Source: a virus (Duplodnaviria; Heunggongvirae; Uroviricota; Caudoviricetes). From it: DNA of 35,093 nucleotides. The stretch lies in the IMG/VR virus record IMGVR_UViG_2529293015_000001; one strand, written 5' to 3'. Under the pieces are notes generated by a model. It was given only the letters and a program-made list of their open reading frames with translations. It did not search any database and had not been told where the DNA came from. Position 1 is the stretch's first letter; each line of letters begins with the position of its first letter. Positions 25,422 to 34,739 of this stretch are shown here, in pieces. The translations under genes and the position numbers were made by a program.

Positions 25422-28400
25422 ATGGGTAAAGGCAGCAGTAAGGGGCATACCCCGCGCGAAGCGAAGGATAACCTGAAATCCACGCAGCTGCTGAGTGTGA
25501 TCGATGCCATCAGCGAAGGGCCGATTGAAGGTCCGGTGGATGGATTAAAAAGCGTGCTGCTGAACAGTACACCGGTGCTGGACAGTGAGGGGAATACCAA
25601 CATCTCCGGTGTCACGGTGGTGTTCCGGGCAGGTGAGCAGGAGCAGACACCGCCGGAGGGATTTGAATCCTCCGGTTCCGAGACGGTGCTGGGTACGGAA
25701 GTGAAATACGAAACGCCGATCACCCGGACCATCACGTCTGCAAACATCGACCGTCTGCGCTTTACCTTCGGTGTGCAGGCACTGGTGGAAACCACCTCAA
25801 AGGGTGACCGGAATCCGTCGGAAGTCCGCCTGCTGGTTCAGATACAACGTAACGGTGGCTGGGTGACAGAAAAAGACATCACCATTAAGGGCAAAACCAC
25901 GTCGCAGTATCTGGCCTCGGTGGTGGTGGATAACCTGCCGCCGCGACCGTTCAATATCCGGATGCGCAGGATGACACCGGACAGCACCACAGACCAGCTG
26001 CAGAACAAAACGCTCTGGTCGTCATACACCGAAATCATCGATGTGAAACAGTGCTACCCGAACACGGCACTGGTCGGCGTGCAGGTGGATTCGGAGCAGT
26101 TCGGCAGCCAGCAGGTGAGCCGTAATTATCATCTTCGCGGGCGCATTCTGCAGGTGCCGTCGAACTATAACCCGCAGACGCGGCAATACAGCGGTATCTG
26201 GGACGGGACGTTTAAACCGGCATACAGCAACAACATGGCCTGGTGTCTGTGGGATATGCTGACCCATCCGCGCTACGGCATGGGGAAGCGTCTCGGTGCG
26301 GCGGATGTGGACAAATGGGCGCTGTATGTCATCGGCCAGAATTGCGACCAGTCGGTGCCGGATGGCTTTGGTGGCACGGAGCCGCGCATCACCTGTAACG
26401 CTTACCTGACCACGCAGCGCAAGGCGTGGGATGTGCTCAGTGATTTCTGCTCGGCGATGCGCTGTATGCCGGTATGGAACGGGCAGACGCTGACGTTCGT
26501 GCAGGACCGACCGTCGGATAAGGTGTGGACCTATAACCGCAGTAATGTGGTGATGCCGGATGATGGCGCGCCGTTCCGCTACAGCTTCAGCGCCCTGAAG
26601 GACCGCCATAATGCCGTTGAGGTGAACTGGATTGACCCGAATAACGGCTGGGAGACGGCGACAGAGCTTGTTGAAGATACGCAGGCCATTCTCCGTTACG
26701 GTCGTAACGTCACGAAGATGGATGCCTTTGGCTGTACCAGCCGGGGGCAAGCACACCGCGCCGGGCTGTGGCTGATTAAAACGGAGCTGCTGGAAACGCA
26801 GACCGTGGACTTCAGCGTGGGTGCAGAAGGGCTTCGCCATGTACCGGGCGATGTCATTGAAATCTGTGATGATGACTATGCGGGTATCAGCATCGGCGGG
26901 CGCGTGCTGGCGGTGAACAGCCAGACGCGGACACTGACGCTCGACCGTGAAATCACGCTGCCATCCTCCGGCACCACGCTGATAAGCCTGGTTGACGGAC
27001 AGGGGAATCCGGTCAGCGTGGAGGTCCAGTCCGTCACCGACGGCGTGAAGGTGAAAGTGAGCCGGGTTCCTGACGGCGTTGCCGAGTACAGCGTGTGGGG
27101 GCTGAAGCTGCCGACGCTGCGCCAGCGCCTGTTCCGCTGTGTGAGTATCCGTGAGAACGATGACGGCACGTATGCCATCACTGCCGTGCAGCATGTGCCG
27201 GAGAAAGAAGCCATCGTGGATAACGGGGCGCACTTTGACGGCGACCAGAGCGGAACGGTGAATGGCGTTACTCCGCCAGCAGTGCAGCACCTGACCGCAG
27301 AAGTCACCGCAGACAGCGGGGAATACCAGGTGCTGGCGCGCTGGGATACGCCGAAGGTGGTGAAGGGGGTGAGCTTTATGCTTCGCCTGACCGTGGCAGC
27401 GGATGACGGCAGTGAGCGGCTGGTCAGCACGGCCCGGACGACGGAAACCACATACCGCTTCAGGCAACTGGCGCTGGGGCGTTACACGCTGACGGTCCGG
27501 GCGGTAAATGCGTGGGGACAGCAGGGCGATCCGGCATCGGTATCGTTCCGGATTGCCGCACCGGCAGCGCCGTCGCGGATTGAGCTGACGCCGGGCTATT
27601 TTCAGATCACCGCCACGCCGCATCTTGCGGTTTATGATCCGACGGTACAGTTTGAGTTCTGGTTCTCGGAAAAGCGGATTGCGGATATCAGGCAGGTTGA
27701 AGCCAGCGCGCGTTATCTTGGTACGGCGCTGTACTGGATAGCCGCCAGTATCAATATCAAACCGGGCCATGATTATTATTTTTACATTCGCAGTGTGAAC
27801 ACCGTTGGCAAATCGGCATTCGTGGAGGCTGTTGGCCAGCCGAGTGATGATGCATCCGGCTATCTGGATTTTTTCAAAGGCGAGATAGGGAAAACCCATC
27901 TGGCTCAGGAGCTGTGGACGCAGATTGATAACGGTCAGCTTGCGCCTGACCTGGCTGAAATCAGGACGTCCATTACGGATGTCAGCAATGAAGTCACGCA
28001 GACCGTCAATAAGAAACTGGAAGACCAGAGTGCGGCAATTCAGCAGATACAGAAGGTTCAGGTTGATACAAATAATAACCTGAACAGCATGTGGGCTGTG
28101 AAGCTGCAGCAGATGCAGGACGGACGCCTTTATATCGCGGGTATTGGTGCCGGTATTGAGAATACCCCTGACGGCATGCAGAGTCAGGTGCTGCTGGCGG
28201 CGGACAGGATTGCGATGGTTAATCCTGCGAATGGCAACACAAAGCCGATGTTTGTTGGTCAGGGCGATCAGATATTCATGAACGAAGTGTTCCTGAAATA
28301 TCTGACGGCTCCCACCATTACCAGCGGCGGTAATCCTCCGGCATTTTCCCTGACACCGGACGGGCGGCTGACGGCGAAAAATGCCGATATCAGCGGTAAC

Positions 28401-28901
28401 GTGAATGCGAACTCCGGGACGCTCAACAACGTCACGATTAACGAGAACTGCCGGGTTCTGGGAAAACTGTCCGCGAACCAGATTGAAGGCGATCTCGTTA
28501 AAACAGTGGGCAAAGCTTTCCCCCGGGACTCCCGTGCACCGGAGCGGTGGCCATCAGGGACCATTACCGTCAGGATTTATGACGATCAGCCGTTTGACCG
28601 GCAGATTGTTATTCCGGCGGTGGCATTCAGCGGCGCTAAACATGAGAGAGAGCATACTGATATTTACTCCTCATGCCGTCTGATAGTGCGGAAAAACGGT
28701 GCTGAAATTTATAACCGTACCGCGCTGGATAATACGCTGATTTACAGTGGCGTTATTGATATGCCTGCCGGTCACGGTCACATGACACTGGAGTTTTCGG
28801 TGTCAGCATGGCTGGTAAATGGCTGGTATCCCACAGCAAGTATCAGCGATTTGCTGGTTGTTGTGATGAAGAAAGCCACTGCAGGCATCACTATTAGCTG
28901 A
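25422..28901 (+). CDS. J: Central tail fiber / host-specificity protein J
   Basis: 1159 aa (about 27 aa longer than the 1132 aa recalled for lambda J); N-terminal [24 protein letters not shown]... as in lambda. Confidence 0.9.
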
Positions 28902-28968
28902 ATTTTATAACCCAGATACGGGCGTCAGAAATGGCGCCTTTTTTATTGCAGAAAAGCGAGAGGTAATT

Positions 28969-29568
28969 ATGCGTAAATTATGTGCTGTTATTCTGTCCGC
29001 AGTAGTCTGGCTGGTTGCCGCTGGTACGCCAGCGAGCGCAGCAGAGCATCAGTCCACACTAAGCGCCGGGTATCTTCAGACCCATACTGATATGCCAGGC
29101 AGCGATGACCTGAAGGGCATTAATGTGAAATACCGTTATGAATTTACGGACACGCTGGGGCTGGTGACGTCATTCAGTTATGCCAATGCCAAAGATGAGC
29201 AAAAAACGCATTACAGCGATACCCGCTGGCATGAAGATTCAGTGCGTAACCGCTGGTTCAGCATGATGGCGGGGCCATCTGTACGCGTGAATGAATGGTT
29301 CAGTGCTTATGCGATGGCAGGTGTGGCTTACAGCCGTGTTTCGACGTTCTCCGGGGATTATCTCCGCGTAACTGACAGCAAGGGGAAAACGCACGATGTG
29401 CTGACCGGAAGTGATGACGATCGCCACAGCAACACGTCTCTGGCGTGGGGAGCTGGCGTGCAGTTTAACCCGACCGAATCCGTGGCCATTGATATTGCTT
29501 ATGAAGGCTCCGGCAGTGGCGACTGGCGCACTGACGGTTTCATCGTGGGTGTCGGTTATAAGTTCTGA
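28969..29568 (+). CDS. lom: Lom outer-membrane protein (Ail/Lom/PagC family)
   Basis: 199 aa; signal peptide ...AAGTPASAAEH; beta-barrel-like alternating pattern; C-terminal ...GVGYKF; SD GAGAGG. Confidence 0.8.
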   Translation: MRKLCAVILSAVVWLVAAGTPASAAEHQSTLSAGYLQTHTDMPGSDDLKGINVKYRYEFTDTLGLVTSFSYANAKDEQKTHYSDTRWHEDSVRNRWFSMMAGPSVRVNEWFSAYAMAGVAYSRVSTFSGDYLRVTDSKGKTHDVLTGSDDDRHSNTSLAWGAGVQFNPTESVAIDIAYEGSGSGDWRTDGFIVGVGYKF

Positions 29569-29594: not shown

Positions 29595-29622
29595 AGCCCG
29601 CCGGTTCAGGCGGGCTTTTTTG
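29595..29622 (+). terminator. Intrinsic terminator after lom
   Basis: AGCCCGCC-GGTTCA-GGCGGGCT followed by TTTTTTG. Confidence 0.65.
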
Positions 29623-29632
29623 TGGAGTGGAT

Positions 29633-32026
29633 ATGGCAGCAGTAAAAATCTCAGGTGTGCTGAAAGATGGTGCGGGAAAACCAATACAGAACTGCACTAT
29701 TCAACTGAAGGCAAAGCGTAACAGCACCACGGTACTGGTGAACACGGTGGCCTCTGAAAATCCGGATGAAGCCGGGCGTTACAGCATGGATGTTGAGTAT
29801 GGCCAGTACAGCGTCATCCTGCTGGTTGAAGGTTTTCCGCCTTCACATGCCGGGACCATTACCGTCTATGAAGGCTCCAGACCAGGTACGCTGAATGATT
29901 TTCTCGGTGCCATGACGGAAGATGATGTCATGCCGGAGGCATTGCGTCGTTTTGAGGAAATGGTGGAAGAAGCGGCACGCAACGCTGAAGCCGCCTCTCA
30001 GAGCGCAGCGGCGGCAAAGAAATCAGAAACTGCAGCGGCATCATCGAAGAACGCGGCGAAAACCTCAGAAACGAATGCAGCTAATAGTGCACAGGCGGCA
30101 GCGGCCTCACAGACTGCATCAGCAAACTCCGCGACAGCAGCCAAAAAATCAGAAACCAACGCGAAAAATAGCGAGACAGCCGCAAAGACGAGCGAAACCA
30201 ACGCAAAGTCCAGCCAGACGGCAGCGAAGACCAGCGAAACGAATGCTAAAGCCAGTGAAACTGCGGCAAAAAACAGCCAGGTTGCAGCAGCCCAAAGCGA
30301 GAGCGCGGCAGCCGGTTCTGCGACTTCAGCAGCTGGATCAGCAACTGCTGCGGCTAACAACCAGAAAGCTGCGAAGACGAGTGAAACTAACGCAAAGTCC
30401 AGCCAGACGGCAGCGAAGACCAGCGAAACGAATGCCAAAGCCAGTGAAACTGCGGCGAAAAGCAGTCAGGATGCAGCAGCTGAAAGCGAGAGTGCCGCAG
30501 CCAGTTCTGCAAGTGCGGCGGCTTCTTCTGCCACTGCATCAGCCAACAGTCAAAAAGCTGCAAAAACCAGTGAAACCAACGCAAAGGCGAGCGAGACTGC
30601 GGCGGATAACTCAGCGAAAGCATCGGCAGCAAGCCAGACGGCAGCTAAAGAAAGCGAAGACGCAGCCAGGGAGTACGCAAGCCAGGCTGCGGAGCCGTAT
30701 AAACAAGTTTTGCAGCCGCTTCCAGATGTGTGGATACCGTTTAACGATTCTATGGATATGATCACCGGATTTGCGCCGGGATATAAAAAAATTACTGTTG
30801 GTGCGGATGTTGTCACTATGCCTAGTGACAAGATTGTTAGTTTTACCCGTGCATCAACCGCTACATATATTAATAAATCTGGTAGGCTTAGTGTCGCTGC
30901 AATTGATGAACCACGATTTGAAAAAAATGGTTTATTGATTGAAGGTCAACGAACTAACTATTTTGTTAAATCTAACACCCCCGCCGAATGGACTAGCACA
31001 AGCAATATTGATAAAAGCAATAATGGCGTTGATGAATTTGGTTTTTCATTTGCAAAAATGAAAACTAAGGAAAATATGACGGGTCAATCATCCGCTCTTA
31101 GTTTGCATACATGCAGCGCATCCCGTGGTGTTGATGTTAGTGGTGATAATAAGTTTTGCACTGTTTCTTGTCGTGTTAAGGCTCCTGATGGCCTCCGTTG
31201 CCGTTTACGCTTTGAAAAATACGACGGATCAGCTTACACCTTTTTGGGTGATGCTTATTTGACCTTCGGTAAAACTTTGACGATCAAAAAAACTGGCGGT
31301 GCTGCTAACCGTATAACGGCAAATGCTATTAAAGACCCGGTTACTGGTTGGGTCTTCTATGAAGCAACGATAGAAGCGGTTGAAGGGGAATCCTTGATTG
31401 GCGCAATGATTCAGTATGCGCCGAAAGAGGGTGGGAAGACAGAAGCTGATGATTATATCTATCTTGCCACACCGCAATTCGAAAATGGTAGTTGTGCGTC
31501 ATCTTTTATTATTACTACAACAGCCCCTTCTACCCGCGCTAGTGATATGGTTAATATTCCTATTACCAATAATTTGGGATCTATTCCGTTGAGTTGCTTA
31601 GTTGAGGTGCATCGCAATTGGAATATTTCTCCTAGCTCTGCTCCTCGAATTGTCCACACAATTGGGGTCGCTTCAAATGACGAGCAAATGATTTTGGCGT
31701 TTAGGAATCCAACAAGTGGTAATGTCGAACCGTTGCCATATTGTCAATTCGGCGTTAAACAATCATACACTCCGGTTGAAGTAAAAACTGGTGGTTTGAT
31801 GGTTGCTGGATTTGTTTGTAAATCCAATTATGAATTTAAATGTGTTGTGAATGGTACATTTGCATCAACTCAAACGACAACATGGAATAATCCGGGCGCA
31901 GCGTCACAGATTAGAATGGGTGGATCGTCTGGTGGCGGAGAGCGGCATCTGTTCGGTCATTTAAGAAATCTCCGTCTTTGGCATAAAGCGTTAACTGATG
32001 CACAAATGGGGGAGTCAGTAGAATGA
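29633..32026 (+). CDS. stf: Side tail fiber Stf: lambda-like N-terminal anchor, Ala/Ser/Thr-rich repeat shaft, foreign lectin-like (LamG/concanavalin-like) distal domain
   Basis: First ~120 aa (MAAVKISGVLKDGAGKPIQNCTIQLKAKRNSTT...) match recalled lambda Stf; low-GC C-terminal half from ~30700; C-terminal ...HLRNLRLWHKALTDAQMGE resembles the end of LamG-type jelly rolls; ATG 29633 with GGAG upstream. Confidence 0.8.
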   Translation: MAAVKISGVLKDGAGKPIQNCTIQLKAKRNSTTVLVNTVASENPDEAGRYSMDVEYGQYSVILLVEGFPPSHAGTITVYEGSRPGTLNDFLGAMTEDDVMPEALRRFEEMVEEAARNAEAASQSAAAAKKSETAAASSKNAAKTSETNAANSAQAAAASQTASANSATAAKKSETNAKNSETAAKTSETNAKSSQTAAKTSETNAKASETAAKNSQVAAAQSESAAAGSATSAAGSATAAANNQKAAKTSETNAKSSQTAAKTSETNAKASETAAKSSQDAAAESESAAASSASAAASSATASANSQKAAKTSETNAKASETAADNSAKASAASQTAAKESEDAAREYASQAAEPYKQVLQPLPDVWIPFNDSMDMITGFAPGYKKITVGADVVTMPSDKIVSFTRASTATYINKSGRLSVAAIDEPRFEKNGLLIEGQRTNYFVKSNTPAEWTSTSNIDKSNNGVDEFGFSFAKMKTKENMTGQSSALSLHTCSASRGVDVSGDNKFCTVSCRVKAPDGLRCRLRFEKYDGSAYTFLGDAYLTFGKTLTIKKTGGAANRITANAIKDPVTGWVFYEATIEAVEGESLIGAMIQYAPKEGGKTEADDYIYLATPQFENGSCASSFIITTTAPSTRASDMVNIPITNNLGSIPLSCLVEVHRNWNISPSSAPRIVHTIGVASNDEQMILAFRNPTSGNVEPLPYCQFGVKQSYTPVEVKTGGLMVAGFVCKSNYEFKCVVNGTFASTQTTTWNNPGAASQIRMGGSSGGGERHLFGHLRNLRLWHKALTDAQMGESVE
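30182..30630 (+). repeat. In-frame tandem repeats of 189 bp (63 aa) in the stf shaft, about 2.4 copies plus degenerate copies upstream
   Basis: Units starting 30182, 30371, 30560 are near-identical (GC[AG]AAGAC[CG]AG[CT]GAAAC...); encode AAKTSETNAKSSQTAAKTSETNAKASETAAK... Confidence 0.85.
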
Positions 32027-32301
32027 AAGATTTTACGCTGAAGTTTCGAGATCGGGAAGACTATAAAGCATTCTTGAATGAAATTAATTGGGAAGATAAC
32101 GAAGTATTGCAAGATCAACTCCTGATTGATGAAATTGGATTCGCTTTCGATGAAGTCGGCAGAAATGCCGACGACGAACCAATTTATCAACGACGCGACG
32201 GTTATTTTGTAAATATTAGAATCTTAGATGAAAAACTGGACGCATCACCATTTACCGGAAATGTAGTGATTCTTGATGCTCCTCTTCGTGAATGGGCTTG
32301 A
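32023..32301 (+). CDS. Hypothetical 92-aa acidic protein, translationally coupled to stf
   Basis: ATG overlaps stf stop (GAATGA); AT-rich; no family recognised; sits where a Tfa chaperone would normally follow stf. Confidence 0.4.
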   Translation: MKDFTLKFRDREDYKAFLNEINWEDNEVLQDQLLIDEIGFAFDEVGRNADDEPIYQRRDGYFVNIRILDEKLDASPFTGNVVILDAPLREWA

Positions 32302-32311
32302 GGGGTAATAT

Positions 32312-33352
32312 ATGGCGAGCTTAACAGTAATTCCTGATGACATCAAAACGCTAAAATCCGACGTTAGCAAATTAAAAAACGATCAAGGAAGCTACGCAAC
32401 AAAATCATATGTAGACAATAAAACAACATGGAATAGTTATTGCAATGTAATCTATGATCAAAAGACATTGCCGACCACTGGAACTATATTTAGCGGTAAG
32501 ATTCACTTGTCAAATAAGACAGGAGAAACTGAAAACGCTTATAGTGAGATGTACACCAGAAAAAATATTGACGGTACAAAAGATACAATGACAAGGATTG
32601 TCACACACAATGGAATAAAAGGTATCTTTTGGGATTTTAGCGATCTTTACGGCGGAACATTAATTTTTCCAGGCAGTGATGGTTACCTTAAGATGGGGAA
32701 CTGTCTCATGTCGTATGGTGTGCGGGGAAGTAACGCGCTTATTAAATTTGATTACACCGACACATTACAGATCAAATATGCCAATCATGGGTCAACCATG
32801 ACATTAAACACACAGGGGACCGCTCATTCTGGCGCTACTACTAGTTTGTGGGGTAACTCTACCCGTCCGGTTGTATATGAAGTTGGTGCTGATGGTGGCG
32901 CGTATATGTTCTATGCGCAGAAAAATACCGATAACACCTATATGTTAAGCGTTAATGGTGCATGTCATGCCACCGCATTTAACCAGCATTCCGACCGGGA
33001 TCTGAAAGACAACATTCAGGTGATCGATAATGCAACCGACCGCATCCGTAAAATGAACGGCTATACATACACGCTTAAAGAAAACGGTATGCCCTATGCT
33101 GGTGTCATTGCACAGGAAGCTCTGGAAGCAATCCCAGAAGTTGTAGGTTCCGCAATGAAATATCAGGACGGTGCGGGCGGATCGGAAGGTGAAGAAGGTG
33201 AACGTTATTACACAGTAGATTATTCTGGTGTTACTGGCTTGCTTGTTCAGGTAGCCAGAGAGTCAGACGACAGAATAACAGCACTGGAAGAAGAAAACGC
33301 AGAATTAAGACAAAGATTATCTGCAATTGAGGCGGCGCTTGCGTCTAAATAA
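32312..33352 (+). CDS. Second tail-fiber-like protein with C-terminal intramolecular chaperone (peptidase S74-like) domain
   Basis: 346 aa; SD GAGGGG 6 nt upstream; C-terminal ~120 aa (…NQHSDRDLKDNIQVIDNATDRIRKMNGYTYTLKE…GVIAQEALEAIPEVV…YTVDYSGVTGLLVQVARE…) match the recalled consensus of self-cleaving fiber/tailspike chaperone domains, then a short coiled-coil tail. Confidence 0.6.
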   Translation: MASLTVIPDDIKTLKSDVSKLKNDQGSYATKSYVDNKTTWNSYCNVIYDQKTLPTTGTIFSGKIHLSNKTGETENAYSEMYTRKNIDGTKDTMTRIVTHNGIKGIFWDFSDLYGGTLIFPGSDGYLKMGNCLMSYGVRGSNALIKFDYTDTLQIKYANHGSTMTLNTQGTAHSGATTSLWGNSTRPVVYEVGADGGAYMFYAQKNTDNTYMLSVNGACHATAFNQHSDRDLKDNIQVIDNATDRIRKMNGYTYTLKENGMPYAGVIAQEALEAIPEVVGSAMKYQDGAGGSEGEEGERYYTVDYSGVTGLLVQVARESDDRITALEEENAELRQRLSAIEAALASK

Positions 33353-33358
33353 TATCAA

Positions 33359-33378
33359 GGGGCCGAGCGCCCCGTTTT
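33359..33378 (+). terminator. Weak intrinsic terminator after the second fiber gene
   Basis: GGGGC-CGAGC-GCCCC followed by GTTTTATT. Confidence 0.4.
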
Positions 33379-33388
33379 ATTGGGTAGG

Positions 33389-33688
33389 ATGAAAATGGAT
33401 ATAACACCTTTCCTTCATGCGCTTTGTGCTGTGGCTGCGCAGGTACTGATTGGCCTTTTTACCGGAAACTGGGCTTACGGGGCGATAGCCGGTTGTACGT
33501 TCTTCATTGCGCGCGAACACACCCAGGCAGAATATCGCTGGATCGAAATGTTCGGGCATGGCAAGCGAATGAATATGCCGTGGTGGGGCGGTTTTGATCC
33601 GCGCGCATGGGATGTGGCAAGCCTGATGGATTTTGCTGTGCCGGTGGTGGCGTGTCTGCTGGTCTGGCTGTTGGTTAATCGTGGGTGA
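33389..33688 (+). CDS. Small hydrophobic inner-membrane protein (two or three predicted TM helices); moron
   Basis: About 99 aa; hydrophobic stretches AVAAQVLIGLF, AIAGCTFFIA, AVPVVACLLVWLLV; higher GC than flanks; ATG 33389 or 33395. Confidence 0.4.
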   Translation: MKMDITPFLHALCAVAAQVLIGLFTGNWAYGAIAGCTFFIAREHTQAEYRWIEMFGHGKRMNMPWWGGFDPRAWDVASLMDFAVPVVACLLVWLLVNRG

Positions 33689-34361
33689 AAAAAGGTGAGC
33701 TGTATATGCAACGGAGGAAGAAAACTCGTTGCTGGAAGCCTTGAAGAAGTATCGGGTGTTGCTGAACCGTGTGGACACTTCCGTAGCACCAGATATCGAG
33801 TGGCTTATTCAACCATAATAAACAGTATGTATATCATAGGTTATTAATTGTGAGTTTTTTCGGTGTGTTATTTGTTTGTTTGATGTTATGCTTTTGCGCC
33901 CCAAAAGGTTGTTTAGATGTATTTTATCAATTGATTTTCAATATCGTTTAATAAAGAAAAATTAAGCAAGCTGGATGTTGGTTTTTTGTTAATTGAATGG
34001 TTCTAATAATGTTTTTTTACTGTTGTTGAATGTGACTTGATAAGAGATGCAAGTAAAAATGATGCTCTTTTTATTTTAAATTCAAACGGTTGATATATAT
34101 AGCAAGAGGTTTCAGGTGCGTTGTAGTGAGTTTATGTTAATAAAAAGCATAGTAAACGTTGAAAAATGTAACTTTGAAATACGTTAGAATAAAAAACAAT
34201 ATACATATAATAATTTAATCTTAAATGAAATTTATTAAAATTTGCAAACTATAATTTTGTGTATAAAAATATAAATGCACATCATCCTGATTATGATTGT
34301 GTATTTAATTGGTTGTTATTTGACTACTATCAACTTGTTTTAATTTTATGATAGGTGCAAG

Positions 34362-34739
34362 ATGGATTATGTTTGCTCCGTAGTTTTCATCTGTCAATCA
34401 TTTGATTTAATTATAAACAGGAGAGTTATCTCGTTCAAAAAAAATTCATTGTTTATTGTAAGCGACAAAATTAGAAGAGAGTTACCAGTATGCCCCTCTA
34501 AACTAAGAATTGTTGATATAGATAAGAAAACATGTTTATCCTTTTTTATCGACGTGAATAATGAGTTGCCTGGCAAATTTACTCTTGATAAGAATGGCTA
34601 TATTGCTGAAGAGGAACCTCCATTATCGCTTGTTTTTTCTCTGTTTGAAGGGATTAAAATAGCAGACTCACACTCCCTTTGGTTAAAAGAAAGACTATGT
34701 ACTGATGAATCCCCTAATGATTTTGGTAAAAATCATTAA
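34362..34739 (+). pseudogene. appY: appY-like AraC-family regulator truncated after about codon 113 by IS10; the last 12 codons are read from the IS10 end
   Basis: [30 protein letters not shown]... recalled as the AppY N-terminus (DLP12); homology ends where the IS10 outside end begins (34702); the AraC helix-turn-helix part is missing. Confidence 0.6.

Follow-up and report, generated by a model that had tools for sequence, protein, structure and literature searches.

The window analysed here is the whole 35,093-nucleotide (nt) stretch of IMG/VR virus record IMGVR_UViG_2529293015_000001 (Caudoviricetes), and its end was identified from open reading frames (ORFs) and homology as the tail-fibre region of a lambdoid prophage. 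Three genes are the subject of this work: stf, which encodes the side tail fibre, orf92, which encodes a small acidic protein of 92 amino acids (aa), and a gene for a second fibre protein, here called fibre 2. The order J-lom-stf is that of the lambda-type side tail fibre locus. At Stf residue ~362 (nt 30710) the GC content drops from 0.54 to 0.42/0.39/0.40, and past position 33352 it is back at 0.55. The C-terminal module of Stf (CTD), orf92 and, where present, fibre 2 are referred to below as the cassette. The features are listed in Table 1; judged from homologues, stf probably starts at ATG 29633 rather than at the GTG used there.

Table 1. Features of the tail-fibre region (positions in the window).
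Feature	Position	Strand	Description
J	25422-28901		83% identical to lambda J; intact
Terminator-like hairpins bracketing lom	28920-28939 and 29595-29616	+	
lom	28969-29568		Between J and stf; intact
stf	29627-32026	+	799 aa from GTG; phrog_1419 matched over full length
Stf N-terminal anchor, aa 5-134	29639-30028	+	PF08400 phage_tail_N
Stf shaft	30152-30604	+	Ala/Lys/Ser/Thr-rich repeats; 189-nt unit x2.3 with 42-nt sub-repeats (AAKTSETNAKSSQT...)
CTD, Stf aa ~362-799	30710-32026	+	Junction segment, two variable beta-sandwich domains, conserved tail
Beta-sandwich domain 1, Stf aa 437-638	30935-31540	+	'Head spike fiber'/CBM-like
Beta-sandwich domain 2, Stf aa ~650-799	31574-32023	+	LamG/ConA-like; ends in conserved tail RHLFGHLRNLRLWHKALTDAQMGE
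orf92	32023-32301	+	92 aa; isoelectric point (pI) 4.2; full-length match to phrog_1361
Fibre 2	32312-33352	+	346 aa; full-length match to phrog_4563
Candidate docking motif and heptad-like stalk, fibre 2 aa 1-36	32312-32419	+	M-x-x-x-T-V-I-P-x-D-I-x-x-L-K
Peptidase_S74 intramolecular chaperone, fibre 2 aa 227-346	32990-33352	+	PF13884; dyad S227/K232
Intrinsic-terminator-like hairpin	33359-33380	+	GGGGCCGAGCGCCCC then GTTTTATT; closes the stf-orf92-fibre 2 unit
Small membrane protein gene	33395-33688	+	97 aa from ATG 33395; phrog_1443; GC 0.55
tfa relic, last 36 codons	33708-33815	+	No start codon; stop codon just before

Stf begins with a lambda-type anchor. Residues 5-134 matched PF08400 with E 6e-67 (224 bits; cut-off 26.6), and comparison with residues 2-317 of lambda orf-401 gave 52% identity. 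The tandem repeats of the shaft, called by Tandem Repeats Finder, give rise to an AT skew of up to 0.6. With homologues of 686 to 812 aa, the shaft probably changes in length through unequal recombination. The CTD that follows has a GC content of 0.42 and a GC at third codon positions (GC3) of 0.32, and carries a PLPDVW motif at residue ~369 that defines its junction. The gp37-like tip of lambda (orf-314) found no significant match in the window (best E 0.65). Instead, Stf residues 437-638 matched the NCBIfam profile GTA_spike_fiber (NF048003) with 64.4 bits (cut-off 36), and this domain aligned with the RcGTA Rcc01080 structure (PDB 6tb9) at E 0.014. Residues 734-793 matched Laminin_G_3 (PF13385) with 26.0 bits against a gathering score of 27.6, over the last 60 profile positions only; a precomputed PF13385 match is listed for the 100% identical fragment P0020. 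An AlphaFold2 monomer model of the CTD, built from 29 homologues, reached a mean predicted local distance difference test score (pLDDT) of 64, with 75-94 in the first sandwich, moderate values in the second and poor ones in the first ~85 and last ~35 residues. A predicted-fold search assigned the beta-sandwiches to carbohydrate-binding module (CBM)/LamG folds of the beta-jelly-roll kind, and a lectin-like tip is thus supported at the level of the predicted fold. A first-pass annotation made from the letters alone had described a lambda-like anchor, an AT-rich distal part and a LamG/concanavalin-like end in place of the gp37-like tip, and all three descriptions agree with these results.

The stf stop codon and the orf92 start codon overlap as ATGA, in keeping with the earlier description of an acidic ORF coupled to stf. 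orf92 belongs to no Pfam, NCBIfam or PADLOC family. Its AlphaFold2 model is confident (pLDDT 89.7) and shows a compact beta-alpha-alpha-beta4 domain. We considered orf92 as a remote homologue of the Tfa chaperone and rejected it at an hhalign probability of 0.1%. An exhaustive phmmer search returned weak multi-copy matches in giant PKD-containing proteins (P0244, P0256, P0259, P0262, P0264, P0275 and P0287) through the motif EP...DGYFVNVRILD, in ~100-aa tandem repeats beside PKD domains with summed E values of 1e-7 to 1e-19. A PKD/Ig-like domain was rejected: the model is alpha/beta and not a beta-sandwich, and each repeat contributes 0-14 bits. The likeness is probably a convergent motif similarity. 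Matches to TPR and CHAT proteins in that search were short-stretch artefacts. An orf92-like fold is present in Synechococcus phage S-CBWM1, and the homologue in the rV5-like phage LL12 (L010, 4001-4333) is a 110-aa form with an insertion.

Fibre 2 starts 10 nt behind orf92. Its S74 domain was detected by PF13884 at residues 227-278 with 52.5 bits (cut-off 22), and weak coiled-coil matches were found at residues 317-340. S74 domains use a Ser nucleophile at position i and a Lys base at i+5 and cut the bond N-terminal to the Ser (endoNF S911/K916; MyRF P586/S587 with K592) (PMC8326128). The sequence S227-D-R-D-L-K232 has the dyad spacing of endoNF and MyRF, and among the 106 distinct haplotypes, 100 keep S227 and 101 keep K232. 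The predicted cut lies between H226 and S227 (NQH/SDRDLKDN), because S74 cleavage precedes the nucleophile Ser; it would leave a mature fibre of 226 aa and set free a chaperone of 120 aa. The first-pass annotation had proposed a self-cleaving chaperone at this C-terminus and a search for the Ser/Lys dyad, and both domain and dyad were found. It placed the cut in the right region (NQHS/DRDLKDN), but one residue downstream of the expected bond. The C-terminal half of fibre 2 (tip and intramolecular chaperone, IMC) is a module common to rV5-like, T5-like and T-even/S16-type distal fibres; its best solved relative is the S16 gp37 tip (6f45). The protein is 89% identical to one of PhiR11_1 and is also found in Tritos, 2G7b and JenP1. 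The same early annotation saw no stf-like anchor on the 346-aa protein. PF08400 is indeed missing, but fibre 2 has an N-terminal motif of its own, in which M1, T5, I7, P8, D10, I11 and L14 are invariant in 106/106 haplotypes and which is also carried by IrisVonRoten Gp24 and VogelGryff gp24. In an E. coli prophage (CP024232; L005, 6600-7784), a 394-aa fibre 2 homologue has the heptad-like unit (DI..LK.D...AK.) expanded several-fold, which indicates that the stalk behind the motif is variable in length.

Linkage, variation and spread of the cassette

Linkage was counted in IMG/VR prophage calls, which are redundant and dominated by E. coli, using the best 80 per scan. When orf92 was the seed, a CTD lay immediately upstream in 91/91 loci; with the CTD as seed, orf92 lay immediately downstream in 79/79, giving 170/170 loci overall. 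Downstream of orf92, a fibre-2-type gene comes next in 40 of the 91 loci, and in 47 the membrane-protein gene follows directly. When the N-terminal motif of fibre 2 was the seed, CTD and orf92 were found directly upstream in 78/78 loci. It was concluded that CTD and orf92 are mutually obligate, and that fibre 2 needs the pair while the pair does not need fibre 2. Phage 21 is an example of the latter, with stf-CTD, orf92 and the membrane-protein gene and without fibre 2.

Across the cassette the ratio of nonsynonymous to synonymous substitution rates (dN/dS) ranges from 0.25 to 0.33. orf92 is under purifying selection either way, with a dN/dS of 0.33 beside fibre 2 and 0.30 (from 10 distinct sequences) where fibre 2 is missing. 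Variation was measured as mean pairwise identity among the 106 distinct haplotypes. The first 85 residues of the CTD (PLPDVWIPFNDS...) reach 0.84, the two beta-sandwich domains 0.55 and 0.51, the CTD tail (...RHLFGH.RN.R.WHKALTD...) 0.79, orf92 0.74, fibre 2 residues 1-36 0.76 and the fibre 2 body 0.48-0.50. Block conservation of the CTD shows the same outline (0.89-0.96 in the first 80 aa, 0.56-0.77 in the middle and 0.85 in the last 40 aa). The conserved CTD ends are the segments left unplaced in the monomer model, which makes them candidates for the contacts within the trimer and with orf92 and fibre 2. The presence of two hypervariable surfaces apart from each other is consistent with two receptor specificities, and the dual receptor-binding arrangement, unlike that of lambda, which the first-pass annotation had proposed gains support from it. 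Co-variation of orf92 is strongest with the CTD tail (rho 0.66), followed by the fibre 2 N-terminus (0.57) and the CTD junction (0.52), and is weaker with the nearer variable domain (0.22). This pattern is suggestive only, as slowly evolving segments share lineage signal.

The cassette is widespread, mobile and already catalogued, and its arrangement is not unusual. The same gene order occurs in lambdoid phages (Tritos, PhiR11_1 and PhiR49_1), in the virulent Nonagvirus JenP1, in Seuratvirus VogelGryff and in the T5-like IrisVonRoten. The CTD is 35-57% identical to fibres of T1-, 9g-, T5- and rV5-like phages; by tblastn, 227 phage records contain it and 188 contain orf92, among them Drexlerviridae, Dhillonvirus and rV5-like myoviruses. 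Altogether the backbones comprise lambdoid, Drexlerviridae, Queuovirinae, T5-like and rV5-like phages. The non-lambdoid CP024232 prophage has a fibre with a 'pyocin knob' N-terminus and a CTD 95% identical to that of the window. Such identity despite an unrelated N-terminus indicates recent exchange between unrelated phage types. Part of the region has matches in 772 of the 5,426 complete E. coli genomes, and only 3 of them match more than 80% of the combination found in the window. In rV5-like myoviruses orf92 is followed by other small ORFs and no fibre-2-type gene, and the CTD-orf92 pair is thus used on contractile-tail phages too. Distant CTD-like segments are seen in tail proteins of Synechococcus phages S-WAM2, S-CAM4 and ACG-2014j; together with the orf92-like fold of S-CBWM1 this suggests that the pair may reach well beyond enterobacterial phages.

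The window contains no intact tfa. The first-pass annotation, which reported no Tfa, was right about the intact gene but missed a relic of 36 codons, which is 81% identical to lambda Tfa residues 156-191 (tblastn, E 3e-13). The GC island at 30710-33352 and the relic together delimit the replaced segment on both sides, the relic being the scar that the exchange of tips left on the right. The earlier reading of the GC drop as horizontal acquisition is borne out by the 95% identical CTD on an unrelated fibre and by the varied backbones that carry the cassette.

Neighbouring genes

The hairpin 3' of fibre 2 has its stem at 33359-33373, followed by a T-run. The membrane protein encoded behind it is 96% identical to phage 21 gp24, which is annotated with two transmembrane domains. 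Its gene comes after the cassette in 47+22 of the loci seeded with orf92 and is missing beside it in JenP1, IrisVonRoten and the CP024232 prophage. The membrane protein is a neighbour from the lambdoid context only and lies outside the mobile cassette. Placed after a terminator, the gene may be a moron, e.g., for exclusion or lysogenic conversion. Further downstream, 33816-34700 is very AT-rich (GC 0.28) and includes a 125-aa ORF (34362-34739) that matched neither a Pfam nor a PADLOC family; this part may be foreign cargo or the prophage end. PADLOC returned no match for orf92, the membrane protein or the AT-rich downstream ORF, and a defence or exclusion role for the three was dropped on this empty result.

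On the other side, lom lies between two terminator-like hairpins, a classic moron layout, and the second of them ends 10 nt ahead of the stf start. The closest complete-genome relative of the window (96.7% nt identity) is a prophage of E. coli GIMC1405 (L001). Its J and stf are annotated as truncated pseudogenes, whereas the copies in the window are intact. That prophage adjoins an icd fragment, an e14-type attachment site.

A proposed two-part side fibre and its alternatives

We interpret the region, with a probability of about 0.7, as coding for a side tail fibre in two parts, in which a mobile cassette has taken over from the ancestral gp37-like tip and tfa. Homology shows that the lambda-type N-terminal domain anchors the Stf trimers at the tail tip, and the imported CTD would present two CBM/LamG-type domains to surface glycans. 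orf92, translated in step with stf, is the dedicated partner of this module and takes the genomic place of Tfa; most likely it helps to assemble the lectin-type tip or caps it, and it may stay bound. Fibre 2 would be an optional plug-in, a distal or branch fibre whose N-terminal peptide and short coiled coil dock on the CTD junction, with or without orf92. Its variable body and T5-pb1/gp37-like tip could supply the second receptor specificity. The trimeric tip is expected to fold with the help of its own S74 domain and then to cut itself between H226 and S227, using S227 and K232.

Several points weigh against this interpretation. The Laminin_G_3 score falls slightly short of the Pfam threshold, and the CTD monomer model is only moderate, with both conserved ends below a pLDDT of 50. 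The CTD domains most likely bind surface glycans, which is deduced from fold class, and the presumed junction from conservation and low monomer confidence. In sequence, profile and fold comparisons orf92 resembles no known chaperone or adaptor, and the role proposed for it follows from position and linkage. Contact of fibre 2 with the Stf CTD or orf92 is likewise something we infer. The loci behind the linkage counts are not independent events, and few distinct orf92 sequences stand behind the dN/dS of the loci that lack fibre 2.

The alternative that survives best, a possible but less favoured one, makes orf92 a permanent virion adaptor. Seated where the Stf trimer ends, it would receive the fibre 2 N-terminus as a socket does, comparable to the T4 gp36/gp35 joints, and in phages that lack fibre 2 it would be a plain cap. 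The co-variation of orf92 with the fibre 2 N-terminus is what such a socket might be expected to leave, yet it may do no more than mirror shared lineage, given how slowly these segments evolve. orf92 variants only ~33% identical also stand beside one and the same fibre 2 N-terminus, and purifying selection on orf92 is just as strong in loci that have no fibre 2 for it to hold. We found no proteomic detection of orf92. In virions of the T5-like phage SIA3lw, ORF42 (an 82 kDa fibre) and ORF44 (a 64 kDa S74 protein) were detected and ORF43 is not in the table, but bands below 19 kDa were not analysed (PMC12752171); ORF42-44 are putative homologues of the cassette genes. Virion proteomics of swan01 and mar003J3 detected too few proteins to inform on orf92. 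A wider form of the idea is put forward tentatively, as possible but less likely than not: orf92 could be a third, hitherto unrecognised kind of fibre partner, neither Tfa-type nor an intramolecular chaperone, obligately coupled to lectin-type tips, with a fold of its own and resident in the virion. With the CTD ends it could form a universal socket for the 15-residue peptide of interchangeable distal fibres, a standard common to lambdoid, T1-, 9g-, T5- and rV5-like coliphages.

It is unlikely that the Stf CTD is only a docking hub and fibre 2 the sole receptor-binding protein, with one specificity in all. Fibre 2 does have the classical tip-plus-IMC module of known receptor-binding fibres, and on some hosts LtfA of DT57C is merely the attachment site for LtfB (PMC4728585). 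On the other side, the CTD sandwiches differ about as much as the fibre 2 body (mean identity 0.51-0.55 vs. 0.48-0.50) and have CBM/LamG folds, and CTD and orf92 are maintained without fibre 2 in the 47 loci noted above, including plaque-forming phage 21. An independent fibre 2, attached elsewhere on the tail tip (e.g., to J) and adjacent to stf only by operon organisation, is very improbable. Its lack of a PF08400 anchor, its own start codon behind a 10-nt spacer and the indirect case for contact with Stf would all agree with independence, but the motif is invariant across lambdoid, T1-, 9g- and T5-like phages with unrelated tail tips, CTD and orf92 are the only constant neighbours (78/78), and a published AlphaFold-Multimer model docks the homologous Gp24 on Gp22 (PMC11990801). 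Least probable of all is a decaying, functionless passenger in a defective prophage, as the truncated J and stf of the GIMC1405 prophage and the past decay recorded by the tfa relic might suggest, given that J, lom, stf, orf92 and fibre 2 are all intact in the window, that dN/dS is 0.25-0.33 and that the plaque-forming phages Tritos, PhiR11_1, JenP1 and IrisVonRoten carry the same cassette.

In many coliphages, host recognition begins at the glycan level with the side or lateral fibres, which are also the parts swapped by engineers to retarget lambda-based delivery particles. In the two-part fibre proposed here the cassette brings its own helper and an optional second fibre and moves intact between unrelated phage families. 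Since it carries its own helper, lambda-type Stf chimeras may need orf92 rather than Tfa. The PLPDVW junction and the docking peptide provide defined handles for modular design.

Comparison with known systems

The closest described system is Gp22-Gp23-Gp24 of the Tequintavirus IrisVonRoten (Bas32), whose genes are homologous one for one and in the same order. The C-terminal part of Gp22 is 44% identical to Stf 133-798 and Gp23 is 47% identical to orf92; the N-terminus of Gp24 (MVTKTVIPTDITKLK) has the same docking motif as fibre 2, and its C-terminus carries an IMC. In the models of the BASEL II study Gp22 forms the proximal fibre, from which a galectin-like domain protrudes that may be 'an additional RBD' (receptor-binding domain), and Gp24 with its IMC was docked on Gp22 by AlphaFold-Multimer; the study is silent on the 92-aa Gp23 (PMC11990801). 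The two systems differ in the anchor, which is T5-type (with LtfC) in IrisVonRoten and lambda-type PF08400 in the window, and in the second fibre: Gp24 is a T-shaped protein of 574 aa with two receptor-binding domains, whereas fibre 2 has 346 aa and a single tip. The obligate CTD-orf92 linkage, the dependence of fibre 2 on the pair, the selection on orf92 and its confidently predicted but unassigned alpha/beta fold are new in this work.

With Stf and Tfa of lambda (orf-401/orf-314/orf-194) the region shares the anchor and shaft, the position behind J and lom and the translational coupling of a downstream helper gene. In contrast to lambda, it has neither a gp37-like tip nor an intact Tfa, and has a lectin-like tip, an unrelated helper (orf92) and an added second fibre. 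Phage 21 is closer, with a lambdoid Stf whose CTD is 46% identical, an orf92 homologue (55%) and the 96% identical membrane protein; lacking fibre 2, it has the minimal form of the cassette.

Branched fibres with two specificities have been shown genetically for LtfA/LtfB of DT57C and DT571/2 and for gp14/gp15 of phiEco32 (PMC4728585, PMC10713586). Their logic is alike: a second, distal fibre is joined through its N-terminus to a proximal one anchored on the tail, and this distal fibre carries an S74 chaperone. DT57C LtfA, unlike Stf, has an S74 domain of its own and no lectin-type CTD, and no orf92-like gene has been described there; the docking elements were compared by logic and not by sequence. 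The chaperone of fibre 2 resembles those of endosialidase, T5 pb1 and S16 gp37 in the S74 profile, the Ser/Lys pair at i/i+5 and a C-terminal coiled-coil-like segment, whereas fibre 2 itself is short (226 aa in the predicted mature form) and lacks its own virion anchor. The RcGTA head spike fibre Rcc01080 has the domain matched by CTD domain 1. In the window that domain belongs to the distal end of a tail fibre, where a LamG-like domain comes next and orf92 is the partner protein.

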